DNA of 64,000 nt from Sulfurimonadaceae bacterium (GCA_963664885.2 CAXXSB010000015.1:169427-233426); one strand, 5' to 3'. Numbered from the stretch's first letter, positions 1 to 64,000 are shown. A program made the numbers and translations. The notes: a model not told the origin generated them from the letters alone.

Positions 1-46
1 GCTCCTAAAAACAACCTTTCTAAAACGGGACAAAAATATATTTTAA

Positions 47-394
47 GTGAAGTGGTGTATGTCTAAGTACTCTTTGCAAGCCAAGATAGAGTTCATGGTT
101 GAGATGATAGAAAACATGGAAGCTATTACACAGCGTCATGGAGGCATCGTAAAAGCGTTGGAAGATTTTGAAGGTCAAATGGCTCTTTTGATGGGACTTT
201 CTCAGATTGGAGAGACACTTAAAAAACTTGACGATGCGACAATCGAGCGCTATGGTCTCCAAAAAGATAGAGACGGCGCTTACTACACAAGAAACTACAT
301 TGTTCATGATTACGAAGGTGTCGATATGGGCTTGATAGAAAATATCATACGAGAGTACCTGCCTGCACTCAAGAAAAAACTTTTAAAAATCTAA
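47..394 (+). CDS. hepT: HepT-like HEPN/DUF86 toxin of an MntA-HepT toxin-antitoxin pair
   Basis: R-x4-H HEPN motif in TRNYIVHDYEGVD, and DUF86-like size. The start is GTG at 47 or ATG at 59. Bases 1-46 read as the 3' end of an upstream ORF (stop TAA 44-46), probably the cognate MntA cut by the window edge. Confidence 0.8.
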   Translation: MKWCMSKYSLQAKIEFMVEMIENMEAITQRHGGIVKALEDFEGQMALLMGLSQIGETLKKLDDATIERYGLQKDRDGAYYTRNYIVHDYEGVDMGLIENIIREYLPALKKKLLKI

Positions 395-469
395 GATTTA
401 TTTGCTCTGAGAAACTTTCACATGCCATGGCATGTACACATCTTGCACCTGCAACATGGGTATTGTTTT

Positions 470-570
470 GTAACACGGACTTCAGTCCGCAAGTATCTCT
501 TTGTACAGGCTAAAGCCTGTGTTACGGGGTGTGATGATGCTTTTCTCACGTAACACGGACTTTAGTCCGT
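470..570. repeat. Cluster of three GTAACAC-hairpin intergenic palindromic elements
   Basis: The three units are gtaacacggacttcagtccg (470-489), acaggctaaagcctgtgttac (505-525, inverted) and gtaacacggactttagtccgt (550-570). The same architecture recurs at 36637-36694 and 42379-42431. Confidence 0.75.
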
Positions 571-631
571 ACAAAACCTCTCTAAGCTTTTACCTGCTAA
601 AATCTAACAAAAAATTTTAAAAAGAGTTTTC

Positions 632-1108
632 ATGAAAAAAATCCTATTTTCGTTTATGGCATGTACGCTTGTGTTTGGTTCTCTCCACGCCGAGGTGTAT
701 GAGGTGAGTAAAACTTCACCTCATAAGCCTCTCGTACGCGACAACGCCAAAGAGGTGGTCATTGACCCAAAAACAAAGCTGATGTGGCAAGATGATGCAA
801 GTGTAAAGAGTGTGACAAAAAACTGGCAAGGAGCCATAAAACACTGTGAGGCACTTAGCTTTGCAGGTTACGATGACTGGCGATTGCCAAAACGCTTGGA
901 GCTTTTAAGCATAACAGACAAGTCGAAAGTAAAGCCCGCCATCAAAGCGGGGTTTGTAAATGTTGTGTCCGACTTTTATTGGTCGAGTTCACCCTATGTT
1001 TCTGATGCGCACTTTGCAGGGTGCGTCTACTTCGACGACGGCGATGACTACTTCTACAGCAAGTCGAATGAGTATTATGTTCGGTGTGTGCGTGAGAGTA
1101 AACTTTGA
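632..1108 (+). CDS. Secreted DUF1566 (Lcl C-terminal-like) domain protein
   Basis: N-terminal signal peptide (MKKILFSFMACTLVFGSLHA). DUF1566 signature blocks WQDD, DDWRLP, FYWSSSP and YYVRCVR. Confidence 0.8.
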   Translation: MKKILFSFMACTLVFGSLHAEVYEVSKTSPHKPLVRDNAKEVVIDPKTKLMWQDDASVKSVTKNWQGAIKHCEALSFAGYDDWRLPKRLELLSITDKSKVKPAIKAGFVNVVSDFYWSSSPYVSDAHFAGCVYFDDGDDYFYSKSNEYYVRCVRESKL

Positions 1109-7801: not shown

Positions 7802-7832
7802 TTTTCACATGCCAAAGCTTGGCATGTGAAAA
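7802..7832. repeat. Perfect palindrome ttttcacatgccaa-agc-ttggcatgtgaaaa, built from two inverted copies of the abundant 8-mer
   Basis: 14-bp stem with a 3-nt loop, read directly from the sequence. No T-tract follows it on either strand. Confidence 0.85.
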
Positions 7833-32847: not shown

Positions 32848-32859
32848 ATATCCAAACCA

Positions 32860-33502: not shown

Positions 33503-33525
33503 AGGGAGGGAAGTCTTCTTGTTCT

Positions 33526-35578: not shown

Positions 35579-35591
35579 GGAGCGTGGGAAC
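35579..35591. repeat. Half REP (gagcgtgggaac) at the right edge of the insertion
   Basis: Matches the right arm of the REP at 33476-33502. No left arm is present. Confidence 0.5.
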
Positions 35592-35601
35592 GAGGGGGTG
35601 C

Positions 35602-44230: not shown

Positions 44231-44252
44231 ACTCTTTGGTACATGCCAAAGA
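44216..44252. repeat. Hairpin ttggcatgtac-(10 nt)-gtacatgccaa made of two inverted 8-mer copies
   Basis: 11-bp perfect stem (44218-44228 / 44239-44249) between the gltX stop and the ABC gene start. Confidence 0.8.
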
Positions 44253-45646: not shown

Positions 45647-45744
45647 AAGAAAAACCTTTTCGTTGAATAATGACGCAATTTTAGGCTACTCTTTGTTAAA
45701 AGCGGGTAAAATCATTTTCAAATTTTTTTAAAAAACGGATAGTT

Positions 45745-46581
45745 ATGGTGCGAATATTTTTACCGATTTTATTGAGCGTTTCCCTCTTTGCAGAGATGAT
45801 CGAAGGGATAGCCGTCGTCGTCAAGGGGGAGCCTATCACTCTTTATGACGTAAAAAAAGAGATGGCACTTGCAAAAACGGATGCAAAAAGAGCATCCGAC
45901 ATGCTCATTAGAAAAAAGCTTGAAGAGCTTGAGATCCAAGAGAGAAAAATCAACGTCACCCCTACCGAGGTGTATGAAGAGATCAAACTAACCGCGGCGC
46001 GCAACAATCTCAGCGTCGATGAGTTTTATGCCGCGGTAAGAGAAACAAACGGACTCAGTTCAAGCGAGCTAAAAGAGAAGATGCGCGAGCGCCTTTTGTC
46101 CCAAAAGCTATATCAGTCGATCGCATATGCGTCGATGTCGCAGCCAAGCGATAGCGAGATAGAGGAGTACTACCGACTCAACAAAGAGAAATTTTTGCTC
46201 CCCAGCGGTTTTAAGGTGATGATTTACGGCGCCCAAAGCCAAGAGCGGCTTCAAGAGAAGATCGCCAACCCGATGCTCTATGCTCCCGACGTATTGACAA
46301 ACGAGCAAGAACTTCCTTACGATCGCATCTCACCCGAATTGGCATCCCTTTTGGCAAAAACGCCGCCGCAAAGTTTTACCCCGGTTATTCCAGACGGTAA
46401 AGGGGGATTTATGAGTTTTTATCTCCAAGAGGTGCTTCAAGCCAAAGAGACGTCGTTCGAGATGCAAAAAGATGCGATCGTAAACGCGCTTATGGCGGAA
46501 AAACGGGAGCAGATACTCGGGGATTATTTTGAAAAATTGCGCCACAATGCCGAGATCGTCCTTGTAAGACTTCCCGAATAA
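45745..46581 (+). CDS. SurA-like periplasmic chaperone / PPIase-family protein
   Basis: Signal peptide, and SurA N-domain-like helical repeats. No clear parvulin motif was seen. Confidence 0.6.
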   Translation: MVRIFLPILLSVSLFAEMIEGIAVVVKGEPITLYDVKKEMALAKTDAKRASDMLIRKKLEELEIQERKINVTPTEVYEEIKLTAARNNLSVDEFYAAVRETNGLSSSELKEKMRERLLSQKLYQSIAYASMSQPSDSEIEEYYRLNKEKFLLPSGFKVMIYGAQSQERLQEKIANPMLYAPDVLTNEQELPYDRISPELASLLAKTPPQSFTPVIPDGKGGFMSFYLQEVLQAKETSFEMQKDAIVNALMAEKREQILGDYFEKLRHNAEIVLVRLPE

Positions 46582-46656
46582 GTTCGAGACGACTCTCATA
46601 TAAACTTTAAGATAAATTGGGGTATCATTTACTTTATATTGCCTAAAGGAAAAGAG

Positions 46657-47046
46657 ATGAAAAAACTTGTATTTAGTTTGAGTGTTTTAGCCGTTCTCGG
46701 ATTGCAAGCGACTGATATCAATACAAATATGCAAACGATGAGAGACGGTCTTTTGGAGATTCAAGACGGGTTTTTGTATAACAATAAAGAAGCCGTAGTA
46801 GCAGGGATCAAAAAGATCGAAAAAGCAAACGAGATTTTTCACAGCAAAGAAGCGGTAGAAAAGTATCTTCCTAAAGAGAAGAAAAAAATGGCTGGCGTAA
46901 CGCTTTTGAGCGCAAAAAGATTAAACTCCGATTTAGAAGCTATGCATGCTTATATCAATGATGGCAAAATGCTTGAAGCAGCAGAGATCCATTCGGACGT
47001 TATGAAAGACTGTACTCGCTGTCATGCAATCGTAAGAGGTTGGTAA
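46657..47046 (+). CDS. Class II (four-helix-bundle, cytochrome c'-like) c-type cytochrome
   Basis: Signal peptide, about 110 helical residues and a single C-terminal CTRCH haem-binding motif. Confidence 0.6.
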   Translation: MKKLVFSLSVLAVLGLQATDINTNMQTMRDGLLEIQDGFLYNNKEAVVAGIKKIEKANEIFHSKEAVEKYLPKEKKKMAGVTLLSAKRLNSDLEAMHAYINDGKMLEAAEIHSDVMKDCTRCHAIVRGW

Positions 47047-47064
47047 AAAGAGTTTAGAAAAGAG

Positions 47065-47096
47065 TCGCCGCAAAGTTTTGCGGGCGGCTTTTTTTG
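47065..47096 (+). terminator. Rho-independent terminator after the cytochrome gene
   Basis: GC-rich stem gtcgccgc...gcgggcggc followed by TTTTTTT. Confidence 0.7.
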
Positions 47097-47151
47097 TTAG
47101 AATTTTTTATAGCATAGCTATAAAAGAGGTGTTCCACGACACAAGGCTTTC

Positions 47152-48492
47152 TTAGCCGTTGTATCGCTCGAGGTATTTTGTGTCGAAGTTGTTTGAGATA
47201 AAATCTTCGTTTTGCATCATTTTCAAATGAAACGGTATCGTCGTTTTAATCCCCGTCACTTTAAATTCGCTTAACGCTCTTCTCATTCTTGCGATCGCAT
47301 CAGCACGGTCACTTCCGCGAACGATCAGTTTTCCGATCATAGAATCATAAGTCGGCGGTACGATATAGCCTGCATGTGCATGGGAATCGATGCGTACGTC
47401 TTTACCTCCTGGAGTGATCCAGTCTTTGATTTTTCCCGGACACGGAAGGAATTTTATAGGATCCTCGGCAGTAATACGGCACTCGATCGAATGCCCTTTA
47501 AGGACGATGCTCTCTTGCGGCGGCAACTCTTTGCCCTCGGCTACTTCGATCATCATCTTGATAAGGTCAAGGTCGCTTACCATTTCAGATACACAGTGCT
47601 CAACCTGAAGACGGGTGTTCATCTCCATGAAGTAGAAGTTCAAATCTGCATCCAAAAGGTACTCGAACGTTCCTGCACCTTCGTATTTGATGTATTTTGC
47701 CGCACGAACCGCAGAATCCCAAAGTCTCTCTCGCACCTCTTGTGTCAGAGCAACCGCAGGAGATTCTTCGATCAGTTTTTGGTGGCGTCTTTGCATCGAA
47801 CAGTCGCGCTCTCCGATATGAAGTACGTTCCCGTGTGCATCGGCAAGTACTTGCACTTCGATATGGCGCGGGTTTTTAATGAACTTTTCCATATAGATGG
47901 TGCCATCGCCAAACGCCGTCATAGCTTCGCTCTCTGCCGCTAAAAATGCGTTTTCAAGGTAGCTTTCCTCTTCGACGACGCGCATACCGCGTCCCCCGCC
48001 CCCTTGTGCGGCTTTGAGGATGATAGGGTACCCTACCTCTTTAGCACGCTTTTTTGCGTCTTCGATGTTTTTGATAGCGCCGTCACTCCCCGGAACTACG
48101 GGAACATCGGCAGCGATCATGACGTCTTTTGCTTTTGATTTATCGCTCATGAGAACCATAACTTCAGGTGTCGGTCCAATGAACTTGATATTGTGGTGGG
48201 TACAAATCTCAACGAAATGCTGGTTTTCACTCAAAAACCCGTAACCCGGGAAAATAGCATCGCAGTGACTGATCTCTGCCGCTGAGATGATAGCGGGGAT
48301 ATTAAGATAACTTTTACTGCTTGGAGCATCTCCGATACAAATTGCGGCATCGGCAAGATTCAAGTATTCGCTCCCCGCATCTGCTTTTGAATACACCGCA
48401 ACAGCCTCTTTGCCCATCTCTTTAATCGTGCGAATCGCGCGAAGAGCGATCTCTCCGCGGTTTGCGACTAAAATTCTTTTGATTTCTGCCAT
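47152..48492 (-). CDS. accC: Acetyl-CoA carboxylase biotin carboxylase subunit
   Basis: ATP-grasp motifs (GGGGRGMR) and strong overall AccC-like sequence. Confidence 0.95.
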   Translation of the reverse strand: MAEIKRILVANRGEIALRAIRTIKEMGKEAVAVYSKADAGSEYLNLADAAICIGDAPSSKSYLNIPAIISAAEISHCDAIFPGYGFLSENQHFVEICTHHNIKFIGPTPEVMVLMSDKSKAKDVMIAADVPVVPGSDGAIKNIEDAKKRAKEVGYPIILKAAQGGGGRGMRVVEEESYLENAFLAAESEAMTAFGDGTIYMEKFIKNPRHIEVQVLADAHGNVLHIGERDCSMQRRHQKLIEESPAVALTQEVRERLWDSAVRAAKYIKYEGAGTFEYLLDADLNFYFMEMNTRLQVEHCVSEMVSDLDLIKMMIEVAEGKELPPQESIVLKGHSIECRITAEDPIKFLPCPGKIKDWITPGGKDVRIDSHAHAGYIVPPTYDSMIGKLIVRGSDRADAIARMRRALSEFKVTGIKTTIPFHLKMMQNEDFISNNFDTKYLERYNG

Positions 48493-48495
48493 GGG

Positions 48496-48945
48496 CTATA
48501 CTTTTTCCACTATAAATAGAGGCATATCGTATTCAACAGCCTGACCGTTTGCTGCTAAAATATCTATAATTTTGCAGTTGAATTCCGCTTCAAGCTCGTT
48601 CATGATTTTCATCGCTTCCAAGATAGCGATCACTTGCCCTTTTTTAACCGTATCGCCTATTTTGACGAAAGAAGGGGAGTCTGGAGATGGAGAGGAGTAG
48701 AACGTTCCTACCATCGGAGAAAGAATCTTATCCCCTTTGAGCTCTTCGGCAGGTGCACATGCCGGCGCAGCAGCAGGTGCGCTCGGTGCAGCCACCGCTA
48801 CGGGTGCAGCCACTGCATGTGCCACGGGTGCGACGGTAATGGTTTTTTCAAATTCAATGGAAAAATCATTTTGTGTCAGTTTCATGCGCGAGAGTCCGCT
48901 TTCGTCAAATTGACTCATAAGCGATTTTATTTGCTTTGTATCCAT
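48496..48945 (-). CDS. accB: Biotin carboxyl carrier protein
   Basis: EAMKIMNE biotinyl-lysine motif and an Ala/Pro-rich linker. Confidence 0.9.
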   Translation of the reverse strand: MDTKQIKSLMSQFDESGLSRMKLTQNDFSIEFEKTITVAPVAHAVAAPVAVAAPSAPAAAPACAPAEELKGDKILSPMVGTFYSSPSPDSPSFVKIGDTVKKGQVIAILEAMKIMNELEAEFNCKIIDILAANGQAVEYDMPLFIVEKV

Positions 48946-49077
48946 AAGTAATACTCCAAAATATATAAAAATTTGCGATATAATACCATAATCTTAATAA
49001 AACTACTTTCAAACCTATCGGAAGTGAGTTTTTGCTCTACTAAACGACAAAAAATCCAAAAAAAAGATCAAAAAGCT

Positions 49078-49521
49078 ATGTTAAGTGATGAAAATTTTAT
49101 CAATATTGCCTTTGAGATAGCCAAAGCTTCCAAGTGTGTTTCCAAACAGGTAGGTGCGGTGATAGTCAAAGACGGCAGGGTGCTAAGTACGGGCTATAAC
49201 GGAACGCCTGCGGGGTATATCAATTGCAGTGAACACTGGGAGGGTGCTTATACAAAAGAGCATCACGAATGGTCGAAAACCTACGAGATTCATGCCGAGA
49301 TGAATGCCATTATTTGGGCGGCACGCAAGGGGATAAGCATTGAGGATGCAACCATCTACGTAACGCTCGAACCCTGCAGCGAATGCAGTAAAAACATCAT
49401 TGCAAGCGGCATCAAGCGCATCGTGTATGCAAAGCCCTATGAACACAACCACTCCGCGATTATTACAAAATTTATCAAAGACAACGGAGTGGTGATCGAG
49501 CGGCTTAAAAACGTGGATTAG
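49078..49521 (+). CDS. dCMP deaminase (ComEB-like cytidine/deoxycytidylate deaminase)
   Basis: HAEMNAI and PCSECSKNI zinc motifs. Start set at MLSDENF. Confidence 0.85.
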   Translation: MLSDENFINIAFEIAKASKCVSKQVGAVIVKDGRVLSTGYNGTPAGYINCSEHWEGAYTKEHHEWSKTYEIHAEMNAIIWAARKGISIEDATIYVTLEPCSECSKNIIASGIKRIVYAKPYEHNHSAIITKFIKDNGVVIERLKNVD

Positions 49522-49871
49522 GCTTTTAAAAAATCCTCTGCAAGACTCGGCGGGCGGGCGATGATCGCTTTGTTCCCTTTTATAATGATGGGGCGCTCAA
49601 TCAGTTTCGGGTGCGCTACCATTGCTTCTATAAGCTTCTCCTCGTTTGTTTCGTTTTTCAAATCAAGCTCTTTGTAGATATCCTCTTTTGTGCGCATCAG
49701 TTCTTTGGCATCTATTCCCAATTTTGAAAGAAGCTCTTTGAGGGTTTCTTTGGTAAGAGGCACCTCGAGATATTTGAACACCTCTTTATCGCATCCGCTT
49801 TGTTCCAAAACAGAGAGCGCTTCGCGCGATTTGGAGCATTTTGGGTTATGCCATATTGCTATTTTTTTCAT
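49518..49871 (-). CDS. ArsC/Spx-family protein (arsenate reductase-like)
   Basis: IWHNPKCSKSR N-terminal Cys motif. 117 aa from MKKIAIW. Confidence 0.8.
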   Translation of the reverse strand: MKKIAIWHNPKCSKSREALSVLEQSGCDKEVFKYLEVPLTKETLKELLSKLGIDAKELMRTKEDIYKELDLKNETNEEKLIEAMVAHPKLIERPIIIKGNKAIIARPPSLAEDFLKA

Positions 49872-49941
49872 CGGCTTTCCTTTTTTTTTGCGACATTTTA
49901 CACTATAATTGTCCCCATCATAAAACACAGAGGCTGACGGT

Positions 49942-50445
49942 ATGAAATATGAAAAAACCTATTCAAAACTTGCCGATTTCGGAAAAGAACTTTTAAGTAA
50001 AACCTCCCTTGAAGAGGGGCTTCCTATGATTGCGAAATATGCAAAAGGGGTGATCGGCGCCGATCGCTGCTCCATTTTTATCAACGATCTCAAAAAAAAC
50101 GAACTTTGGACAACCTTGGCAGACGGCGTGGAGAAGATAGTGGTTCCCTCCGACAAGGGGATTGTGGGGTATACCATTAAAGCCAGAAAACCGATCATTG
50201 CCAACGACGCCTACTCCAACCCCAATTTTTTGTCCGACATCGACAAGCAAACGGGCTATGTGACCGAGAATATCGTAACCGCTCCCGTATTTAACTCCAA
50301 AAGGGATATTATCGGTGTTTTGCAGCTGCTTAACAAAGAGGACGGGTTCGATAACGAAGATGTCAAGTTTATGATCTTTTTTGCACACTACATCAGCGGG
50401 TTTCTTGAGCTTGTCAATCTTTACAATGCGGATGAAAAAAAATAA
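49942..50445 (+). CDS. Stand-alone GAF-domain protein
   Basis: ADRCSIFI...LWT...GIVGY...TENIVTAPVF...IGVLQLLNK GAF pattern. Confidence 0.8.
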   Translation: MKYEKTYSKLADFGKELLSKTSLEEGLPMIAKYAKGVIGADRCSIFINDLKKNELWTTLADGVEKIVVPSDKGIVGYTIKARKPIIANDAYSNPNFLSDIDKQTGYVTENIVTAPVFNSKRDIIGVLQLLNKEDGFDNEDVKFMIFFAHYISGFLELVNLYNADEKK

Positions 50446-50454
50446 GGGAATAAA

Positions 50455-50943
50455 ATGAAGAAAATCAATCAAGTAGCGGAATTCGGAAAAAAGTTGATGG
50501 CGCTCAGCGATATGGAGCAGATCATAGAGCTGATCGGGCAAGAGGCAAAAGAGCTTTGCAATGCGGATAGATGCTCTATATTTATCGTCGATAAAGAGGA
50601 TAACATGCTTTGGACGCGCTTAAGTGACGGGATCGGACGGATAGTGATCTCGATCGATTCGGGGATCGTAGGCGATACGTACCAGAAAAAACAGCCCCAA
50701 ATGGTCAATAAACCTTATGATGACGAGAGGTTTCTTCCTAACATCGATAAAAAAAGCGGCTATACGACGAAAAATATCTTGACGGTTCCCATTTTCGATT
50801 CAAAACGGGAAGTGATCGGCGTGATCCAGCTGCTCAATAAATTCCGTGACGATTTCAACCAAGAGGATCTGGAAACACTCACTTTTTTCTCTAACTACGT
50901 TAGCGGCAGTATAGAACTTGTGCTCTTGAACGATAAAAAATAA
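50455..50943 (+). CDS. Stand-alone GAF-domain protein (paralogue of the upstream gene)
   Basis: Same block order as the upstream gene: ADRCSIFIV, GIVGD, TKNILTVPIF, IGVIQLLNK. Confidence 0.8.
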   Translation: MKKINQVAEFGKKLMALSDMEQIIELIGQEAKELCNADRCSIFIVDKEDNMLWTRLSDGIGRIVISIDSGIVGDTYQKKQPQMVNKPYDDERFLPNIDKKSGYTTKNILTVPIFDSKREVIGVIQLLNKFRDDFNQEDLETLTFFSNYVSGSIELVLLNDKK

Positions 50944-51069
50944 TCAGCTTTTTTGATTCCCGTTTCGGGTTTTATGGTTATTTTTTAATCATACCCGAGA
51001 TTAAATAACATCCAATTTTCTTTATAATGGTCTCTTCAAAACAAAACCGCAAGGTTTGAAGAAGGTACC

Positions 51070-51609
51070 ATGAATCCAAAAAACAGCTACATTACCCAAC
51101 TCAAAAAAGCACATGCCGAACATAAAAAGTGGCTCAATCAGGTGCGTTTGGTGGTTTCTGGAATCGTCGATAAAACAGACACGATCCCCGTGGATGCCAC
51201 GCAAACCCCTTTTGGCATGTGGTTGTATGCAAAAGGGTTGGTATTTACGACGATACGAACTAGCGAGGTTATAGCGGAGATAGAGCAGCTCTATCAAGAG
51301 TGTTACGATATCTATTTAAAAATATACGCTTTGCTCGGCAACAAGAAAAAAGGGCTCCTTGCGTTTTGGGTACAACCCGCATATGCAAATAGTGCAGAAC
51401 TTAATGCCTCGCAGGAGTATTATGAAACACTCGTCGGCATTGCAGATGCGCTGAGTCAAAAACTAAGGGTTCTCGAAGCGCAGATGGCGGCGACAAGTGA
51501 GTCGCAGTTTGAAGCTTTTGGGAATTTGGAAGAGCCCAAAGAAAAGCCCGAAGAGGTAAAAACACCCACAAAGCGGTACTATTATCGCGGTACGATTATA
51601 GAAGAGTAG
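51070..51609 (+). CDS. Hypothetical protein, weakly CZB-like N-terminus
   Basis: HAEHKKWLNQV...FGMWLY resembles chemoreceptor zinc-binding domains but lacks the Cys. Confidence 0.5.
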   Translation: MNPKNSYITQLKKAHAEHKKWLNQVRLVVSGIVDKTDTIPVDATQTPFGMWLYAKGLVFTTIRTSEVIAEIEQLYQECYDIYLKIYALLGNKKKGLLAFWVQPAYANSAELNASQEYYETLVGIADALSQKLRVLEAQMAATSESQFEAFGNLEEPKEKPEEVKTPTKRYYYRGTIIEE

Positions 51610-54178: not shown

Positions 54179-54404
54179 ATTTCGCCCCCTTTTGGAATAT
54201 TTTTGTGTAAAAGTATAGCGAAATTCAAAAAAATTAAATCTCTCTAAGAGCCGCCTCATGCTCTTTTTTAAAGCGGCGAAAAGCGGTTTTGACGTGTTCG
54301 AGAGTGGGTTTTGAGACATATTGCAACAACGCATCAAAAGTTAAATCGTAGTGATATTTTTGAAGCAAAAATCTCTAGTAGACAAAGCTACATGCCATGA
54401 AAAA

Positions 54405-54470
54405 ATTAAACGACACAATGTACATTTAACACTTTTTTCGACTATTTAAACGACAAAATGTCCAAATAAC
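54405..54470. repeat. Two about 26-nt direct repeats (attaaacgacacaatgtacatttaac / atttaaacgacaaaatgtccaaataac)
   Basis: Read directly. They lie in the non-coding left edge of the AT-rich island, 200-260 nt upstream of the first island gene. Confidence 0.5.
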
Positions 54471-54668
54471 GCCAAAAATATTTTTAAATGCACATTGAAA
54501 TTTTAAAGAATTCAATGGATTTAGCTAGAAAATAACAAATATATTGCATTTGGTCATAGTTTTATCATTTAAAATAACATTTTTTGTGTCGTTTATTTAG
54601 TGAATTTCAAGCTGTTTAACATATAATGTTCGTTGAATAAATAGTTAGCATAAACCAGAGGAGAACTT

Positions 54669-55100
54669 TTGGCAGAACATATCAAACCATTTGATGCACA
54701 GAATTTAGAAGCAATTTGTAAAGTTTTAGCTGATACCAGCAATGGTTTAACGGGTACACAAATTGGATATATTTTACAAGATTGCAAAGTACAAGATACA
54801 GACCCATCTGCGACTAAATGGAAGCGTCTATTCAATGCAATGGCAAATAAACAAAATGAGCGTAAAATTGGTAATTTTTTAATAATGTTTATTACTAGAG
54901 CGATGAATCCAGTAAATTATTCAAGAGACAAAGAAATATTTGAATGGCGTAGAACAGAATTGAATATTGTTTTGTCTTTCTCTGGCTTTGAAATTAGAGA
55001 AGATGGAAAAGTTATTAAAAGTTCAAAGGAAACAACATTAAGAGGAGCAAGAGAACGAGCTGGTGCACTCAGGTTAAAACTAGAGGTATACTGCCACTAA
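54669..55100 (+). CDS. Protein resembling the N-terminal region of TIGR02391-family proteins. The last 3 codons and the stop are supplied by the IS.
   Basis: LEAICKVLADTSNGLTGTQIGYIL...DPSATKWKRLFNAMA matches my recollection of that N-terminal module. The TIGR02391 (Hypoth_Ymh) domain itself is absent. GAGGAG RBS. Confidence 0.5.
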   Translation: MAEHIKPFDAQNLEAICKVLADTSNGLTGTQIGYILQDCKVQDTDPSATKWKRLFNAMANKQNERKIGNFLIMFITRAMNPVNYSRDKEIFEWRRTELNIVLSFSGFEIREDGKVIKSSKETTLRGARERAGALRLKLEVYCH

Positions 55101-56387
55101 AATATCAGACAGCAATTTGAGAGGAGATCTTCCTAAATGGTACAATTAAACAGACATTTAGGAGAGCGGATTATGAGTAAAAAGCGTAAGCAATATTCTG
55201 CGGAGTACAAGACGAAAGTGGTGCTTGAACTTTTGCAGGGAGATTTAACAGTGGCACAGGTGGCAAGCAAATATGAGATCACAGCCAAGAGTCTGACCGA
55301 CTGGAAGAAGCAGTTTTTAGAGAATGCATCGTTGGCGTTCGATTTGAGCGGAGCGACCAAATCATACAAAGATGAGATCGAAACCCTTAAAGAAGAGAAC
55401 GATGCATTAGCAAAAAAACTTGGCAAGACGACCATTGAACGCGATTGGGCAGTGGGAAAGCTAAAGAGCTTGGACTTATCAAATAAAAAAGATCTTGTCG
55501 ATTCCAAGCTCAGTGACATTCCAGTGGCAAGACAATGCGAGATGATCGAGCTGAACCGATCAGCACTCTATTACGAAGCAAAGCCGATTCGTCAGTACGA
55601 TTTGAAGATCATGCGGCGAATTGATGAAATCTACACTGGTATATCCTCGACCTACGGCTATCGTTTCATGCACCGCCAGCTGCTCGAAGACGGCTTTTCA
55701 ATCGGGGTCAATAAGGTAAACCGGCTGATGAATGTGATGGGGATACAGGCAATCTTTCCGAAAAAGCGCAAGCTCACGTCCATCAAGAACCACGAGCACA
55801 AGATTTATCCCTATCTTCTCAAAGAGCTGCAAATTACCAAACCCAATCAGGTCTGGAGCGGCGACATCACCTACATTCGAACCCATGGCGGGTTTATGTA
55901 CCTGGCGGCGATCATCGACTGGCATAGCAGATCCATTCTCGCTTGGAAACTATCCAATACAATGGATACGCTTCTCGCAACCGATGTACTCAAAGAAGCC
56001 ATCGACAAATACGGAACACCGGAGATTTTTAACTCCGATCAAGGGTCACAATATACGAGCTTTGAACATACGAAAATACTCAAGGATCACGGCATAAGAA
56101 TTTCCATGAACGGTAAAGGCAGATCGATCAATAATATCGCCATCGAACGTTTCTTTAGAACGCTAAAATACGATGAAATCTACATTAACGATTACCAAAG
56201 TATCAGCCATCTTCGCAATAGCATTGCAAAGTATATGAACTTTTACAATTTCAATAGGTTTCATTCGGCACTTGGCTATAAAAAACCGATGAACGTATAT
56301 CTGGAAGGAGTTAAAAAAGTTGGTTAGGCATTTAGCAGGCGGTGGGAAGATGAACTCTCAAAATCCTGTCTTGACATTTGGTGGCAG
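55091..56387 (+). mobile_element. IS3-family insertion sequence, about 1.3 kb
   Basis: Imperfect terminal inverted repeats of about 45 bp (ctgccactaaaatatcagacagcaatttgagag / reverse complement ctgccaccaaatgtcaagacaggattttgagag). 4-bp target duplication TATA (55087-55090 and 56388-56391). GC content is higher than that of the flanking DNA. Confidence 0.85.
55173..56327 (+). CDS. IS3-family DDE transposase (OrfA-OrfB in one continuous frame)
   Basis: N-terminal HTH (YSAEYKTKVV), leucine-zipper-like region, and a DDE core with WSGDITY, NSDQGSQYTS and the catalytic E in AIERFFRTLK. An A7 run is present at the usual frameshift position. Confidence 0.9.
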   Translation: MSKKRKQYSAEYKTKVVLELLQGDLTVAQVASKYEITAKSLTDWKKQFLENASLAFDLSGATKSYKDEIETLKEENDALAKKLGKTTIERDWAVGKLKSLDLSNKKDLVDSKLSDIPVARQCEMIELNRSALYYEAKPIRQYDLKIMRRIDEIYTGISSTYGYRFMHRQLLEDGFSIGVNKVNRLMNVMGIQAIFPKKRKLTSIKNHEHKIYPYLLKELQITKPNQVWSGDITYIRTHGGFMYLAAIIDWHSRSILAWKLSNTMDTLLATDVLKEAIDKYGTPEIFNSDQGSQYTSFEHTKILKDHGIRISMNGKGRSINNIAIERFFRTLKYDEIYINDYQSISHLRNSIAKYMNFYNFNRFHSALGYKKPMNVYLEGVKKVG

Positions 56388-56934
56388 TATAACTGACAAC
56401 AATACTAGACCTATTTTTAATTGGAATAGTAATGTAAAAAGTGTACTTTATGAAAATGCAACATTCACCTTTTGGAATGAATTTAAATACTCTGATGCTC
56501 TGTGGTTTTTAGACTTATCAAAAGGGTATGATGAACAGAAACACGAGGTATATGAGCTTATTGATATATCAATTAAATTAATTCATGCCAATTCTAAAAG
56601 CAGTAGCAAGGTACTAGAACAACATTTGCAGACATTGAGAATTGGACTACTGAGCTATAGTAAGTTCTTATCCCCAAATACTAACCCCATTCTAACCAAA
56701 ATAATAGAAGAGTTTGAAGATGATAAATATTGGCTTGTATGGCTCACTTTATTTGAAATGGTAATGCAATCACCTGATAATTGGGCTTTCTCTTCTAATG
56801 AGGAACTAATTAATTTTTATAAAAATATTAGTTTAAAAAAGTCTTGGGCAAATGTCATAAAAGAAATCAATACACCAAGAAATGAATATTTAAGAGATTT
56901 ACTTAATACTTTTGTTCAAGAGTTATCTATTTGA
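56350..56934 (+). CDS. Hypothetical helical protein whose only ATG lies inside the IS right end
   Basis: The frame is open from 56320. No ATG/GTG/TTG start exists downstream of the IS boundary (56387) for well over 100 codons. No family recognised. Confidence 0.4.
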   Translation: MNSQNPVLTFGGSITDNNTRPIFNWNSNVKSVLYENATFTFWNEFKYSDALWFLDLSKGYDEQKHEVYELIDISIKLIHANSKSSSKVLEQHLQTLRIGLLSYSKFLSPNTNPILTKIIEEFEDDKYWLVWLTLFEMVMQSPDNWAFSSNEELINFYKNISLKKSWANVIKEINTPRNEYLRDLLNTFVQELSI

Positions 56935-56964
56935 TAAAATCTATAACAAATCAGAGGAGTTAAT

Positions 56965-57324
56965 TTGAAAGACACCGTAGTCATTTTTATTATAATTGTT
57001 GGGGTTGCGAATATAGCATTAAATATTTTTATCAGCAAAGCAGCGACTTTACACACATCTTATTTCGAAGCAATGAAATCAACTACATTTATGATTGCAT
57101 TTCTTATTGGAACTTTTTCTATTTTATCTATGCTTTACTTATATTACAGCAAGGTAGACTTAGGCAGAGCAATATTGTTGATGGGGGCTACTTCAATAAT
57201 AGGCGGAAGCTTATACGGTATCTTATTTCATGGTAATAAATTCGATTGGGCGGAAATTGTAATTTTAGTGTTTATTGGTAGTCTATATTCTTACCGTCTT
57301 TTTATCAAACCGTACTTTTCATAA
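56965..57324 (+). CDS. Small 4-TM membrane protein, SMR/EamA-half-like
   Basis: Four hydrophobic segments in 119 aa. TTG start with GAGGAG 5 nt upstream. Confidence 0.6.
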   Translation: MKDTVVIFIIIVGVANIALNIFISKAATLHTSYFEAMKSTTFMIAFLIGTFSILSMLYLYYSKVDLGRAILLMGATSIIGGSLYGILFHGNKFDWAEIVILVFIGSLYSYRLFIKPYFS

Positions 57325-57408
57325 TTACAAAGCAAATAAACATCCTTTGGAACACCGCACACCAATATGAAAAAATAGTTATATAAAAACCACAGGAGAC
57401 CAATTAAA

Positions 57409-57449
57409 AACCCTCGGGCAGCTTTTTGATTGGTCATTTTAAACGTTAT
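57409..57449. repeat. About 40-nt repeat, copy 1 (accctcgggcagctttttgattggtcattttaaacgttat)
   Basis: Second copy at 58424-58461. Each lies just downstream of an island gene and upstream of the next one. Confidence 0.6.
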
Positions 57450-57470
57450 ACAAATTAAAAGGAACTTTAT

Positions 57471-58391
57471 TTGAAACAAGAAAAACTTTATCCATATACA
57501 TTGTTTATTGATATTTTAGGGTATTCAGATAAAATAAAAAATATATCTAATAGTTGTGAATCTTCAGAAATCTTTGATTTATTAAATTATATAGAATTAT
57601 CTATAACTGACTACTTTAAATTAGCGAAAGACTCTAAATCTCATAAAGAGTACAACATGCACTATACATTTTTTTCCGATTGTATTGTTTTATCTTTTGT
57701 ACCCAAAGAAAATTTAACTATTTCCAATAATGAAATTATATACTTCAATGAGACTACTTTAGAGTTTATTTTTACTTGGATAATGAACATACAATTTATA
57801 TCTTTATTGAAAACAGGGTTTTTATTAAGAGGTGGTATTTCCATTAAAGATATATATTGGGATAAAAAGAACAGAGTTGTTGGACCAGCCTTAATTGAAG
57901 CATATAACTTAGAATCAAAAAAAGCCGACTGGCCTAGAATTGTTTTATCTGAAGATATTACTAAAGATAAAAAACTTGTCCATTTGCTTAATAGTATTTC
58001 TATGAATTCTGACTCCACATACTTACCTCACATCTTAATATATCAAGAAAGTAATGAGTCTGTTGGTTATTACAACTACATAGGTAGAATGTTGGCTAGA
58101 TTAAATCCTAATGTATTAAATGAAATTGATAAGAATATATTGCCACACCTTAGTGGAAATGTTATAAATATTAACAATAATCTAACTAAAGAGCAATATT
58201 TAGAAATTGCTGAAATGACCGACGCTTTTTTAGAACAGCATCAAAAAATAATTGAAAATAATTTACATAACAATGATAAAAAAATAAAAAATAAATATAT
58301 TAAATTGAAAAAATATCATAACAATGCTTTAGAGGATTTTGTAAAATACAATCATGAGTGGGCGATACTACTAGAACTACAGGTAACTTAA
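57471..58391 (+). CDS. Protein with an N-terminal nucleotidyl-cyclase (class III / GGDEF-like palm)-like region and a helical C-terminal extension
   Basis: The motif order is YTLFIDILGYSD (first Asp), FFSDCIVLSF (second Asp), LLRGGISIKDIYW, then VVGPALIEAYNLES..WPRIVLS. This mirrors FxDIxGFT ... GD ... RIGIHxG ... GxxVNxAARLE. TTG start with AAAGGA upstream. The ORF itself is solid, but the domain call is tentative. Confidence 0.5.
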   Translation: MKQEKLYPYTLFIDILGYSDKIKNISNSCESSEIFDLLNYIELSITDYFKLAKDSKSHKEYNMHYTFFSDCIVLSFVPKENLTISNNEIIYFNETTLEFIFTWIMNIQFISLLKTGFLLRGGISIKDIYWDKKNRVVGPALIEAYNLESKKADWPRIVLSEDITKDKKLVHLLNSISMNSDSTYLPHILIYQESNESVGYYNYIGRMLARLNPNVLNEIDKNILPHLSGNVININNNLTKEQYLEIAEMTDAFLEQHQKIIENNLHNNDKKIKNKYIKLKKYHNNALEDFVKYNHEWAILLELQVT

Positions 58392-58423
58392 ATATATAAC
58401 AAGTACGAAGAACGCAATAATTT

Positions 58424-58461
58424 ACCCTGCGGGCAATTCATTGGCTCATTTTAAACGTTAT
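58424..58461. repeat. About 40-nt repeat, copy 2 (accctgcgggcaattcattggctcattttaaacgttat)
   Basis: The 3' 22 nt match copy 1 with one mismatch. The 5' part keeps a ccc-N2/3-ggg mini-hairpin. Confidence 0.6.
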
Positions 58462-58525
58462 CTTAACAAATGAATTGACACTGTAATGTAATTACAATAT
58501 AATTACGTAATCGAAAGGAGTTCAT

Positions 58526-58786
58526 ATGGCATCTTTAATCAAAATCGGTAATTCGCAAGGTATCAGACTCCCCAAAGCGATCATAAAACAGGCACATCTT
58601 GAAAATGCAGAGTTGGAATTCGAAGTTCTTGAAAACGGCCTATTGATCAAACCGTCGAACAATGTCGGCAGAGAAGTCTGGAAAAAAAATATTCAAAATG
58701 TTATGATGGCCAATCAAGGCAAGGTCGATGAAGCACTTTTGGACGATATGCTAAACGACAGTGATCTGGATGATTACGAATGGTAG
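58526..58786 (+). CDS. mazE: MazE/AbrB (SpoVT-AbrB)-family antitoxin
   Basis: IKIGNSQGIRLPKAII swapped-hairpin motif and an acidic C-terminus. Confidence 0.8.
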   Translation: MASLIKIGNSQGIRLPKAIIKQAHLENAELEFEVLENGLLIKPSNNVGREVWKKNIQNVMMANQGKVDEALLDDMLNDSDLDDYEW

Positions 58787-59106
58787 TCGATATTCAAAGG
58801 TACGAAATTTACCTTGTGAAACTGAACCCGACAGTTGGATCTGAAATTCAGAAAACACGCCCCTGCATCGTCATCTCTCCCAATGAAATGAATGTCTTGA
58901 AAACCGTCATCGTAGCGCCTATGACCAGCAAAGGGTTTGACTTTATATTCAGACCTAAGATCAAATTTGAAAACAAAAATGGATTGGTGTTGCTAGACCA
59001 GATCAGAACCGTCGATAAGACAAGATTGATCAAAAAAATCGGCGATGTTGACGAACGCGTATCTAAAAATATTTCCGACATGCTGGTAAAAATGTTCGAA
59101 TACTAA
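58780..59106 (+). CDS. mazF: MazF/PemK-family endoribonuclease toxin
   Basis: YLVKLNPTVGSEIQKTRPCIVISP and LLDQIRTVDKTRL blocks. 7-nt overlap with mazE. Confidence 0.85.
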   Translation: MVVDIQRYEIYLVKLNPTVGSEIQKTRPCIVISPNEMNVLKTVIVAPMTSKGFDFIFRPKIKFENKNGLVLLDQIRTVDKTRLIKKIGDVDERVSKNISDMLVKMFEY

Positions 59107-59177
59107 GTAGAAGTGTGATGAGCGAAAGATTATCGCTATAGTTAAAGCGCAGCAACAAAAACTTATAGGAGCTTGGC

Positions 59178-59420
59178 ATGAATACTTCGATAACTAGAAT
59201 TGATTTTGGAGATAAAATTTATGTCTATCTCAAAAGCAACGATATCTTGACCCTTCCTTACAGCTATACAAAAAAAATTCAAAAAGCTACAAAAGAGCAG
59301 CTCCTTAACTACCGTCTTATCGGCGGTGGGGTCGGTGTTCATTTTGAAGATATAGACGAAGATATCTCACTCAGTGGCATTATTGCGTATAAAACTTCCC
59401 ATGAGCTTAGAGCTTCTTAG
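59178..59420 (+). CDS. DUF2442-family small protein
   Basis: GGGVGVHFEDIDEDISLSGI matches the DUF2442 signature (xWPxLDEDISVxGL). Confidence 0.7.
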   Translation: MNTSITRIDFGDKIYVYLKSNDILTLPYSYTKKIQKATKEQLLNYRLIGGGVGVHFEDIDEDISLSGIIAYKTSHELRAS

Positions 59421-59436
59421 CTGACATCTCTCTCTT

Positions 59437-59515
59437 GTCCCCACGGTCTCCATGGGGATGCATAGTAACCTAACAAGCAACATATATCTCTTCCAACGCA
59501 AAGCATTGGAACAAG
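59437..59515. repeat. Two variant REP elements
   Basis: gtccccacggtctccatggggatgcat (59437-59463) and cttccaacgcaaagcattggaacaagag (about 59489-59515). The architecture matches the RAYT-flanking REPs but the stem sequences are altered. Confidence 0.65.
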
Positions 59516-59649
59516 AGTGAAAAATCATTAAACTCTACATGCCATGAAGTTTGAGCGCACTTAGATAAAACTTCTCGTTGTTTATGCGTGGCATGTTGCT
59601 TCTTTGCATGGTGTCTATTATATAGTATTGCAAATAAAGGAGCTATGGC

Positions 59650-61240: not shown

Positions 61241-61334
61241 GAGAAGGAGATTTTTAAAAGTGTTTGGTTGTGTTTTATAAAACGAAGTGTTGAACACTCA
61301 GGGATTCGAACCTTTTTAAAGGTTCCTTTGTTTT

Positions 61335-61946
61335 TCATTTCTCAAAAAATACGCTGATATCGTGCGGCAGGTACCCTTCTTGAAAGCGCACTTTTGTTAC
61401 TCCTATCTCTTTGGCTACCTGCTCGATCTTTTCTCGCATCATGTAGTTGTAGGTTTTGCTCTCTTTGGTGCCGTGAAGCACATTAAATACAAACCCTACT
61501 CTACATGCCATGAAACAGTTGCGTAAAAACAGCATGCTTTCAAACTCGGTGAGGATGTTGAGTGCGCCGCTGCAGACGTAAAAGTCGGCGCTGGGAAGGG
61601 TGTCGCGGCAGATGTCGGCGCAAAGGGCTTGGCATGCGGTGCGCTCTTGCGTAATGGCGCACATATTTGCAACCACATCGATGCCGAGGTAAGATTTTGG
61701 CGTCTTGGCATGTGTGCGTAAAAAAAGGTAAAGATCCCCGAATCCGCACCCCGCATCGGCGATGTCGTAGTTGTGCAGATCCTGCGGCAGCATCCCCAGA
61801 AGCACCTCGAACCTTTTTTGCTGCGAACGTTTTGAACTCCAATGCACCCCTTTGGCGCTGATGCCGTAGCGTTTGTAAGAGGCGGCGTAAAATGTTTCGT
61901 TGTCGATGCGTGCCATTACGTTCCTTTTTGAGTGTTCTTGCTTCAA
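61335..61946 (-). CDS. Class I SAM-dependent methyltransferase
   Basis: Motif I DAGCGFGDL. Confidence 0.75.
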   Translation of the reverse strand: MKQEHSKRNVMARIDNETFYAASYKRYGISAKGVHWSSKRSQQKRFEVLLGMLPQDLHNYDIADAGCGFGDLYLFLRTHAKTPKSYLGIDVVANMCAITQERTACQALCADICRDTLPSADFYVCSGALNILTEFESMLFLRNCFMACRVGFVFNVLHGTKESKTYNYMMREKIEQVAKEIGVTKVRFQEGYLPHDISVFFEK

Positions 61947-62063
61947 AGAAGCAAAGCTTTAGTCGCCATAGCGGCGCAAGCGTAGCTTAACGGACTTGTT
62001 CGTTAAGCGTTTTTGAATTAGTAACTCTATTATATAATACGCCAAAACATACGAGGATAAAAA

Positions 62064-62939
62064 ATGAGAATTGCAGTCGTGGGGCTCGGCGGGGTCGGGG
62101 GATATTTGGCGGCTTCTTTGGCATGCAGCACGCATGAGGTGGTGGGATTTGCCCGCGGTGCGCATCTGGAAGCGATACAAAAAAACGGCATCACCGTCGT
62201 AGAGGATACAAAAACATGGCATGCCACATGCCAAGCCCAAGAGCTAAAAAACCCGAGCGGGGTGTTCGATCTTGTGCTCTTTTGCGTCAAGGGGTACGAT
62301 CTGCTCCCTTCGCTTGAAGCCCTCCGACATGCCATAACGCCCGATACGATTCTGCTCAGCTTTGCAAACGGCATCGAGAACGGCGAACTCTTGCGTCAAA
62401 ATATACATGCCAAGGTTTTGGACGGGTGCGTGTATATCCTCTCCCATATCGAAAAAGCAGGCGTGATCCGTAAAAAAGGGGAGGTTTTTGCGGCGGTTTT
62501 CGGCGGTGACAAAGAGGCGACGCACAAGGTTGCCGAGCTTTTTAAAGAGGCTCACTTACGCTATAAGACTCCCGAAAACATCCAAGAAGCGATATGGAAA
62601 AAGTATATTTTTATCGCCGCTTTTGCGACCCTTACAAGCACCTACGACGCCCCGATAGGCGCGATCTACAAAGAGCACTACGATGAGGCAAAAGCACTTT
62701 TGGAGGAGATCGCCGCGGTGGCACATGCCAAGGGGATAGAGATAGCCGATGAGGTACAAAAAGCGCTCGATACCGCATCCAAAGTTCCCTATGATTCAAG
62801 CACTTCGATGCATCTCGATTTTCAAAACCATAAGCCCACGGAGGTCGAGACCCTCAGCGGCACTATCGTGCGCGAAGGGGTGAAATACGGCATCAAAACA
62901 CCGCTTATGCAGAAGTTTTACGAGAAACTTCGCGGGTAG
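62064..62939 (+). CDS. panE: 2-dehydropantoate 2-reductase (ketopantoate reductase)
   Basis: N-terminal VVGLGGVGG Rossmann motif and C-terminal SSTSMHLDF, EVETLSG blocks. Confidence 0.85.
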   Translation: MRIAVVGLGGVGGYLAASLACSTHEVVGFARGAHLEAIQKNGITVVEDTKTWHATCQAQELKNPSGVFDLVLFCVKGYDLLPSLEALRHAITPDTILLSFANGIENGELLRQNIHAKVLDGCVYILSHIEKAGVIRKKGEVFAAVFGGDKEATHKVAELFKEAHLRYKTPENIQEAIWKKYIFIAAFATLTSTYDAPIGAIYKEHYDEAKALLEEIAAVAHAKGIEIADEVQKALDTASKVPYDSSTSMHLDFQNHKPTEVETLSGTIVREGVKYGIKTPLMQKFYEKLRG

Positions 62940-64000
62940 CTTTGCGTATCTCCTCTTGCAATGTTTTGAGGGAACTCTCTTTTGTATCGCCCCCGTATTT
63001 AAGGGTGTGGTAGAGGCGGTTAAGCTCACTAAACGAGACCCCCGAGCCCTTTTCTGCACGCCTTAAAAAGTGCTCCATCGTTTCGCTCTCTTGCTTATGC
63101 AGCCCTCTTTTTTCCAAAACACGAAGCAGTTTTTTCATGGCATGTACAATAGGGTCGCCCTTTTTTGTGGTATGGATCATCCAAAAAATCAAAAGCGAGA
63201 GGGCGATCAAAGCCGCAAACGCACCCACAAACTGCAAAAGGTAAAGGGTGTCGCTGAGGAGATTTTTAAGGATCGCAACCTGTTTGAGACGGTTATAGTC
63301 CAAAACCCATTTGGTGATGAGGTACCTTACGTACATAAATTGGAGATTGACCTTTTCAAACATGGTTTTTTGCGCTCTTGCCGCCTCTTGGGTTTGCGGC
63401 ATGTCGAGATTTTTGATCGCCGTGGCGGTAGGTTCAAACCGCACCCATCCCTCTTTGCCCAGATACAGCTCCACCCATGCATGGGCATCGGCGCTTGTGA
63501 TGAGAAGATAGTTCTCGATGCGATTCTCTTTTGAGCCTTTAAACCCCGTGACGACCCGCGAAGGGATCCCCAAAAACCTTGCACTTTGCGCAAATGCCGA
63601 TGCGAAATGGACGCAGTAGCCGTTTTTTGCCTCAAAGAGAAACGAATCGAGGAAATTTTCAAAATCTATATTTTTGGGTTTGGTGGTGTAGGAGAGGTTT
63701 TGATCGGCAAAAAATTGTACGAGCATTGCCGCTTTTGTCGCAGGGTCTGCCTCTAATGCTTGCAAAGGAGCGAGGCGTGCGGCGGTTTGCGGGCTTTTTG
63801 CAAGATCAAACGCCGTGTTTTTTGAAACGTCGCTAGAGAGAAGCCGATAGGAGAGCACCGAGGTGAGCGTGTAGCGCTTTTTCTCGTATAAAGGGCGCTG
63901 GGAGGTGATGGTGTGGTCGTTTGCAAGGGTCGTTTTGAGCGGCGAGGCGGTGGGAAGATCGAGTGCATAGACCCAGTGTTTGGCATGGGGGTAGATGGTT
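62905..64000 (-). CDS. Transglutaminase-like (TgpA-type) membrane protein, 5' end outside the window
   Basis: GYCVHFASAF (Cys nucleophile) and AHAWVELY (His) core. The reading frame stays open to the window edge upstream of the GTG at 63858. Confidence 0.75.
   Translation of the reverse strand, partial: TIYPHAKHWVYALDLPTASPLKTTLANDHTITSQRPLYEKKRYTLTSVLSYRLLSSDVSKNTAFDLAKSPQTAARLAPLQALEADPATKAAMLVQFFADQNLSYTTKPKNIDFENFLDSFLFEAKNGYCVHFASAFAQSARFLGIPSRVVTGFKGSKENRIENYLLITSADAHAWVELYLGKEGWVRFEPTATAIKNLDMPQTQEAARAQKTMFEKVNLQFMYVRYLITKWVLDYNRLKQVAILKNLLSDTLYLLQFVGAFAALIALSLLIFWMIHTTKKGDPIVHAMKKLLRVLEKRGLHKQESETMEHFLRRAEKGSGVSFSELNRLYHTLKYGGDTKESSLKTLQEEIRKATREVSRKTSA

Follow-up and report, generated by a model that had tools for sequence, protein, structure and literature searches.

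DNA uptake sequences (DUS; GCCGTCTGAA and its dialects, in Neisseriaceae), which are read by the minor pilin ComP, and uptake signal sequences (USS; AAGTGCGGT / ACAAGCGGT, in Pasteurellaceae) are short genomic words that occur at roughly one per kb. In the phylum Campylobacterota, Helicobacter and Campylobacter are naturally transformable, and Campylobacter jejuni provides, through CtsM and the sequence RAATTY, an example of methylation-dependent DNA discrimination in transformation. Here we describe the word ACATGCCA (reverse complement TGGCATGT), which is dispersed at a similar density through a 64,000-nucleotide stretch of DNA (GCA_963664885.2, CAXXSB010000015.1:169427-233426; hereafter the window). 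The genes of the window assign it to an uncultured member of the Sulfurimonadaceae, also within the Campylobacterota.

Sequence-specific DNA uptake is treated in a 2025 preprint as known in two families, the Neisseriaceae and the Pasteurellaceae. The preprint matches several of the DUS and USS features listed at the end of this paper, and finds that DUS/USS pairs usually lie within predicted terminators. HIP1, the highly iterated palindrome of cyanobacteria (GCGATCGC), has sites that are conserved between genomes and contain methylation targets; it was recently proposed to be a methylation-dependent (DmtC) uptake sequence, which would make it the third case. Our main sample is the single 64-kb window, and the comparative loci, from uncultured organisms, are 3–22 kb long.

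The word in the window and its relatives

Exact search of both strands of the window found 73 copies of the word, 36 reading ACATGCCA and 37 reading TGGCATGT on the plus strand. Dinucleotide-preserving shuffles gave a mean of 1.51 copies (standard deviation 1.2, maximum 4), so that the observed number is about 50 times chance. The word tops all 8-mers of the window by frequency, above every A-rich word, and its density outside the two AT-rich islands described below is 1.30 copies/kb. A first-pass annotation of the window, made by a model from the sequence, had put the number at about 70 with the two orientations near equal. The recount (73 against 1.5 expected) agrees with it, and every position that it cited (428, 7807, 7820, 32791, 35631, 35994, 36007, 44219, 44241, 54390 and 59537) is a true copy. 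The enrichment also survives a higher-order background. Markov models of order 1–4 predict 1.4–5.9 copies, and those of order 5–6 predict 30–66, but the latter expectation is circular, the shorter words contained in it (6- and 7-mers such as ACATGCC, 76 copies, and CATGCCA, 98 copies) being abundant solely inside the 8-mer.

The full motif is ACATGCCA-W-R-V. Following the word on its 3′ side are W in 70 of the 73 copies, then R in 69, then a base other than T in 72; the W-R flank is retained in the non-coding copies as well, and the extended form ACATGCCAAG occurs 27 times in the window. Core positions 3–8 (ATGCCA) are essentially invariant, while at position 1 A stands far above C or G (73/11/11/3) and position 2 allows some G. 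Beyond positions –3 to +10 the information content is about zero. Only one pair of copies, 32791 and 35631, shares flanks, these lying in the direct repeats that border island 1. Each copy is thus a point occurrence in its own right and not part of a mobile repeat, and the possibility that all of them belong to one larger dispersed repeat can be set aside.

Our gene calls are crude (68 genes, covering 91% of the window), and by them 59 copies are coding (41 sense, 18 antisense), 12 intergenic and 2 at gene edges. Thus 81% of copies lie inside genes, and intergenic DNA is enriched twofold, holding 12–14 of the 73 copies in 8.7% of the sequence. Against the 59 coding copies found, a model of codon usage would give 1.17. 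All six frames are enriched (7–84-fold over that model), and the ranking of the frames roughly tracks the ease of encoding the word in each. Half of the coding copies (30 of 59) read xxA-CAT-GCC-Axx (His-Ala-Lys/Ile) and antisense placement requires Cys, Trp or Met, which accounts for the preference for the sense strand (41:18, P = 0.004). His-Ala dipeptides are encoded CATGCC in 46 of 63 cases (73%), where codon usage predicts ∼13%; the dipeptides themselves are ∼1.7-fold in excess, as estimated from the same counts.

Traces of the word are seen in the Tex protein, whose alignment gives the word-bearing lineages a derived H-A or H where other Sulfurimonas have K-S or N, and in which, at a conserved D-M-P, the word arises via synonymous codon choice. 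Some sites were thus created by amino-acid replacement (K-S to H-A and N to H in Tex), to judge from the alignment. The word can also overlap start codons, as it does in the Tex gene (Table 1); gene 24033–24863 (minus strand) begins ATG GCA TGT, a comparable overlap with the word on the other strand. The first-pass annotation, noting copies in intergenic DNA and in several frames within genes, had argued that codon usage could not explain the word, and the force behind it does act on DNA, not on protein. CAAAGAG, the second most frequent 7-mer (98 copies, 37 expected), serves as an internal contrast: 69 of its 98 copies fall in one sense frame (xxC-AAA-GAG, Lys-Glu), the mark of ordinary codon or dipeptide bias. 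The CAAAGAG-related words AAAGAGCT and AAAGAGTT are also common in two other loci, L083 and L089.

The word is missing from DNA that looks imported. The intervals 32799–35630 and 54398–59536 (7.9 kb together), which correspond to the AT-rich islands, contain no copy where 10.3 are expected (P(0) = 3.3e-5). It had been noted at first pass that the RAYT and DUF2971 genes, the insertion sequence element and the interval 54398–59536 lack exact copies, and that the word behaves as a host signature absent from horizontally acquired DNA; both statements hold.

The Tex protein of the window is 93% identical to that of a metagenome-assembled genome (MAG) labelled ‘Sulfurimonadaceae/Thiovulaceae bacterium’ and ∼74% identical to those of Sulfurimonas species. 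A search of sister lineages for the word had been proposed with the first-pass annotation, and three relatives prove to carry it densely (0.6–2 copies/kb), with the same W-R-not-T flank. These are L082 (Tex 93% identical to the window, GC 45%, 9 copies in 6.9 kb), L169 (80%, GC 40%, 7 in 3.4 kb) and L083 (79%, GC 34%, 10 in 17.7 kb). It is absent from 22 kb of L086 (Tex 77%, GC 37%) and from 22 kb of L170, Sulfurimonas crateris (73%, GC 41%). Since the word persists over a 12-point range of GC, it is not an effect of composition. Individual sites are conserved too. In the orthologous DNA of L083, 5 of 13 window sites are intact, compared with 5.8% of all 8-mers (P = 5.6e-4), and in that of L082, 6 of 8 are intact, compared with 38% (P = 0.04). 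A Campylobacterales MAG (L171, 22 kb, Tex 73%) has 5 copies of CACATGCC, where 0.3 are expected, and 3 of the full ACATGCCA; here, further from the window, the word may be either in decay or just arising.

Elsewhere in the family the words differ. A perfect 10-bp palindrome, TTACATGTAA, occurs in 5–7 copies per locus in L091 (5.8 kb), L092 (5.4 kb) and L172 (15 kb), where fewer than 0.1 are expected, both within genes and between them. Its lineage is an uncultured one of the Sulfurimonadaceae (Tex 66% to the window, GC 43–51%), in which two copies in tandem, a conserved arrangement, fold into a long hairpin (L172 1432/1447, L092 73/87). TACATGTAG has 4 sites in 7.4 kb of L002. AAACGCAG has 11 copies in L003 and 6 in L001 (11.9 kb each), and AAACGCCA(C), as (T/A)AACGCCA(C), has 16 in 16.7 kb of L089 and 10 in 22 kb of L086. 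Each of these words is dispersed, with unrelated flanks. ACATG is common to ACATGCCA and the palindromic words, and A.A.GCCA is common to ACATGCCA and AAACGCCA, the word of the nearest outgroup. None of the words of foreign lineages is enriched in the window. By a uniform test (corrected P < 0.01), 9 of 15 Sulfurimonadaceae-like loci show some hyper-abundant 8-mer in dispersed copies, compared with 6 of 135 unrelated ones. This distribution of different words among lineages resembles the ‘dialects’ of DUS in Neisseriaceae. In more distant relatives (L097 and L098, 22 kb each, Tex ∼50% to the window), AAATCTGA reaches 18 and 20 copies where 3–5 are expected, and may be another lineage-specific word.

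The loci came from several scans. A contig scan seeded with the asparagine synthase gene, which lies in accessory DNA, gave 80 loci, nearly all of them from distant taxa and serving as negative controls, the exceptions being L001–L003. A metagenome scan seeded with Tex found no relative above 74% identity, and it was here that the TTACATGTAA lineage surfaced. All of the words are missing from the Sulfuricurvum kujiense plasmid pSULKU01, a result that says nothing about the chromosome. Full-text literature searches found no description of ACATGCCA, ACATGCCAAG or TTACATGTAA, nor anything relevant on uptake sequences of Campylobacterota or Sulfurimonas, and these taxa are unmentioned in a survey of abundant oligonucleotides.

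Inverted pairs, islands and other features

Coordinates are collected in Table 1.

Table 1. Copies of the word and other features of the 64-kb window
Feature	Position	Strand	Remarks
ACATGCCA copies (starts)	420, 2115, 3147, 4461, 7807, 8430, 9178, 9898, 13192, 13429, 14384, 18159, 18852, 24855, 26384, 29289, 31803, 32436, 32791, 35631, 35994, 36067, 37132, 41735, 44241, 52486, 53091, 53515, 54390, 59537, 60601, 61503, 62226, 62327, 62405, 62723	+	exact search
ACATGCCA copies (starts; TGGCATGT on +)	428, 657, 3011, 3380, 4059, 5027, 7820, 8523, 9039, 15482, 18476, 19350, 20088, 20275, 21167, 23001, 28559, 30277, 30530, 30781, 31045, 35875, 36007, 36665, 39727, 43075, 44219, 44702, 51213, 51981, 53011, 53180, 53388, 59589, 59803, 61706, 63138	-	exact search
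Copy overlapping Tex start codon	31045..31052	-	last A of word is A of start (ACATGCC-ATG)
Inverted pair, zero spacer, ACATGCCATGGCATGT	420..435		intergenic, 26 nt past HepT-like gene (47-394); folds weakly, -9.1 kcal/mol, z = -0.1
Inverted pair 7807/7820	7802..7832		14-bp-stem hairpin TTTTCACATGCCAA-AGC-TTGGCATGTGAAAA, 7 nt past nifU-like stop (7795); -18.8 kcal/mol, z = -5.7; no U-tract after
Inverted pair 35994/36007	35994..36014		within Ser_hydrolase-like coding sequence (35602-36135, -); -15.3 kcal/mol, z = -3.1
Inverted pair 44219/44241	44213..44250		14-bp-stem hairpin between gltX stop (44258) and ABC exporter start (44230), both -; -21.8 kcal/mol, z = -5.2; no U-tract after
AT-rich island 1	32816..35607		GC ~28-34%; word-free
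Direct repeats bordering island 1	32768-32815, 35608-35655		48 bp, 94% identical; one word copy each (32791, 35631)
REP-like hairpins flanking RAYT gene	32818-32851, 33409-33442		GTTCCCACGC..GCGTGGGAAC
Partial REP-like hairpin	near 35580-35596		within island 1
RAYT gene	32860-33393		island 1
DUF2971 gene	33526-35025		island 1
MmeI C-terminal fragment	35025-35420	-	island 1; 131-aa open reading frame
AT-rich island 2	54398..59536		GC 30-38%; word-free; open reading frames without family matches
IS3-family transposase	55137-56327		island 2
Word-free native-GC stretch, 6.5 kb	44710..51212		gltX, SurA-like, accC, accB, dCMP-deaminase-like and ArsC-family genes

The word forms four inverted pairs in the window, three of them intergenic and just downstream of genes. 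A canonical terminator role for these pairs was considered and is unsupported, the U-tracts being missing. Of the pair inside the Ser_hydrolase-like gene, only the 36007 copy is kept in L083, the relative with 79% Tex identity. Scanning viral contigs for inverted pairs gave chance matches and unrelated operator or tandem repeats, with no phage at a host-like density of the word.

The direct repeats around island 1 carry the 3′ end of the Ser_hydrolase-like gene in duplicate. The 131-aa open reading frame of this island matches MmeI-type (Type IIG) restriction-modification enzymes in their C-terminal domain only, and is probably a remnant truncated on arrival of the DUF2971/RAYT DNA. The word-free stretch with native GC, whose genes are conserved housekeeping ones, is the maximum gap between copies (P = 0.009); its proteins may be strongly constrained, or DNA of a word-lacking lineage may have replaced it.

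The window has 259 CATG sites (∼245 expected), 73 of them within the word and 186 outside, and a general avoidance or enrichment of CATG was rejected on these numbers. Other short sites are avoided: GGCC strongly (8 sites, observed/expected (O/E) 0.06), CCGG also strongly (30 sites, O/E 0.20), and CTAG with O/E 0.54. The avoidance of GGCC and CCGG suggests that restriction of HaeIII-like and HpaII-like specificity has long exerted pressure on the lineage. Toxin–antitoxin-type genes are present at 47–394, 4276–4647 and 53440–54337, comprising two HepT-like RNases, one of which adjoins an MNT-like nucleotidyltransferase, and a MazF/PemK-like toxin. Genes of c-di-GMP signalling (GGDEF, EAL, PAS) are numerous.

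A possible role in transformation and its rivals

The explanation that we favour, with a confidence that stops a little short of even, is that ACATGCCA(W)(R)(V) may be a self-recognition word for natural transformation, like DUS and USS or like HIP1. We infer the link to transformation from the abundance, symmetry, frame independence, site conservation and clade restriction of the word and from the different words found elsewhere, together with the analogy to known systems. A component of the transformation machinery would bind word-bearing DNA, directly or after word-specific methylation of the CATG-containing core, and fragments bearing the word would be preferentially taken up or recombined. 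Uptake bias and homologous recombination, possibly with selection, would fix new copies where the protein code tolerates them. The same process would maintain the existing copies, and recently acquired DNA would be without them. Changes in the specificity of the receptor would give each lineage its own word, or dialect.

A likeness to uptake sequences had been suggested at first pass, and each of its sequence-level predictions that we examined held: the balance of orientations, the density of ∼1/kb, the absence from islands, the hairpin pairs, the sister lineages, the conserved sites and the dialects. The part that has to be revised concerns the HIP1-like reading, which is more credible than was assumed, because the palindromic sister word TTACATGTAA shares the CATG core. 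Several points weigh against a transformation word. No competence gene (comEC, dprA, comEA, cts/pilin or comB) was present among the ∼60 genes scanned in the window. The spacing of copies is clumped, or over-dispersed (coefficient of variation 1.3, P = 0.005), because the 6.5-kb stretch of native GC is also without the word. The 18 one-mismatch variants of core positions 3–8 total 16 copies, about the level of chance and with no enrichment. No U-tract like that of canonical terminators accompanies the inverted pairs, and the perfect palindromy of TTACATGTAA suggests a dimeric reader (e.g. a Type II methyltransferase) rather than a receptor of the DUS type. All of the comparative samples, moreover, are short (3–22 kb).

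The word could instead have been iterated for a chromosome-level function unrelated to uptake, as a HIP1-like site to which an abundant protein, of nucleoid or structural type, would bind. This we regard as unlikely, if the strongest of the alternatives. Sites are conserved between lineages, as they are for HIP1, TTACATGTAA of a sister lineage is a genuine highly iterated palindrome, and the strict core fits a sequence-specific binding protein; but frequent word switching between close lineages ill fits a conserved architectural role, and we know of no nucleoid protein with a specific site of 8–11 bp at ∼1/kb. HIP1 itself, on which the comparison is modelled, is now being reinterpreted as transformation-related. 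Slightly less probable again is a non-adaptive origin, the word arising as a side effect of sequence-specific DNA modification together with mismatch repair that is biased (a Vsr- or Elhai-type ratchet), in which a word-recognising methyltransferase and a nuclease would turn near-cognate sites into cognate ones. Heavy restriction-modification pressure in the genome (GGCC O/E 0.06, CCGG O/E 0.20) and the lineage specificity of the words, which is like that of restriction-modification repertoires, speak for such a ratchet. So do the CATG inside the word, a common methylation target in Campylobacterota, and a possible depletion of one-mismatch neighbours of core positions 3–8 (16 against ∼27 expected), though this depletion is statistically unresolvable on 64 kb. 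Against it, CATG outside the word is neither enriched nor avoided (186 copies), and no DNA methyltransferase or Vsr gene lies within the window, the only related item there being the MmeI C-terminal fragment of island 1. To our knowledge, specificities of the Vsr type or of Type II methyltransferases do not typically combine an asymmetric core of 8 bp with 3 bp of degenerate flank, and Campylobacterota are without MutL and MutH.

The remaining alternatives fare much worse. GC skew is positive across the entire window, from which a single replichore is inferred, and on that apparent replichore the word has no strand polarity (36:37, for these 64 kb only). A polar motif like Chi (AddAB/RecBCD) or like the FtsK-orienting polar sequences (KOPS) would have a similar length and would likewise be an over-represented host signature, but this balance argues such motifs out, in line with the first-pass judgement that strand symmetry made them less fitting, and we give them very little probability. 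All Chi and KOPS motifs known to us are strongly co-oriented with replication, and Chi of Escherichia coli is several-fold sparser. Even more improbable is that selection acted on the peptide His-Ala-Lys/Ile, on the choice of codons or on some motif in RNA. The concentration of 30 of 59 coding copies in one frame and the 41:18 excess of sense copies would suit such selection, but all six frames and intergenic DNA are enriched, non-coding copies keep the flank, CAAAGAG shows what a single-frame codon bias looks like here, and a search of Rfam found no match for the motif. Hardly any credence, finally, is left for copies of a miniature mobile element or for repetitive extragenic palindromic (REP) sequences serviced by the RAYT of the window. 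A RAYT gene is indeed present, but it sits in a word-free island and has a REP-like hairpin of its own, so ACATGCCA is not its REP. Information is flat outside –3 to +10, a single pair shares flanks, and most copies are intragenic, with no insertions or deletions relative to orthologues. Membership of a REP or bacterial interspersed mosaic element (BIME) family, for which imperfect palindromes of 20–40 bp, mostly extragenic, are expected, was rejected for want of conserved flanks and with 81% of copies inside genes.

If the word does act in transformation, there is a broader proposition, which we hold to be possible but doubtful: the Sulfurimonadaceae, free-living sulfur oxidisers, may join the two known families as a third group of bacteria, phylogenetically far from both, whose uptake of DNA is sequence-specific. 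Its words (ACATGCCAWR, TTACATGTAA, TACATGTAG, AAACGCAG and AAACGCCAC) would be fast-evolving, its reader, whether a receptor or a methylation-reader, would be non-homologous to ComP, and its asymmetric and palindromic words would join DUS/USS and HIP1 as one phenomenon. What is new here is the occurrence of candidate genomic self-tag words in a new phylum, with new sequences. Self-tagging of genomes would then be a recurrent solution, not a curiosity of host-associated pathogens. With close lineages using different words, the receptor could be sought by co-variation. The words could serve as markers in binning metagenomes and in spotting horizontally acquired DNA, and in the design of transformable constructs for sulfur oxidisers that are genetically intractable. 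Even without uptake, a force that rewrites proteins to install an 11-bp word about once per kb is unexplained biology.

Comparison with known systems

Chi, KOPS and the related architecture imparting sequences (AIMS) are, like ACATGCCA, over-represented host-specific octamers, but they are skewed to the leading strand and sparser, whereas ACATGCCA has no skew. The CtsM/RAATTY system belongs to the same phylum as the window, and there too a short sequence marks self DNA for natural transformation. RAATTY, however, is a 6-mer with degenerate positions; it depends on methylation and does not occur in great excess, whereas ACATGCCA is a specific word of 8–11 bases, ∼50-fold over expectation.

HIP1 is closer. 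It too is an octamer of very high abundance, which spreads through substitutions and not through insertions; its sites are conserved and occur in coding and non-coding DNA; it has variant words in different lineages; and it holds a methylation tetramer, GATC in HIP1 and CATG in ACATGCCA. The two differ in that ACATGCCA is not its own reverse complement, although TTACATGTAA is, and in being from different phyla.

With USS the word shares a strict core with weaker flanks, the toleration of amino-acid replacements to fit the word, and the preference for easier frames. The spacing of ACATGCCA is clumped and its one-mismatch core variants are not enriched, whereas one-mismatch variants of USS are common.

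The features shared with DUS are the most extensive. Both are short asymmetric words at ∼1/kb, equally frequent in both orientations; both occupy several frames within genes, are enriched between genes and have a placement shaped by coding constraints. Both form inverted-pair hairpins after genes and are lacking in mobile or acquired DNA, and both are common to related species while other clades of the family have dialect words. The differences are that ACATGCCA is in a different phylum, with an unrelated sequence; that its hairpins are without U-tracts; that one dialect (TTACATGTAA) is a perfect palindrome; and that the dialects (ACATGCCA, TTACATGTAA, AAACGCAG) are more divergent than those of Neisseriaceae, which share a conserved core. 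Present roughly once per kb where the DNA of the window and of its closest relatives is native, and nowhere in the imported islands, the word looks like the DUS and USS ‘self tags’ of Neisseria and Haemophilus.

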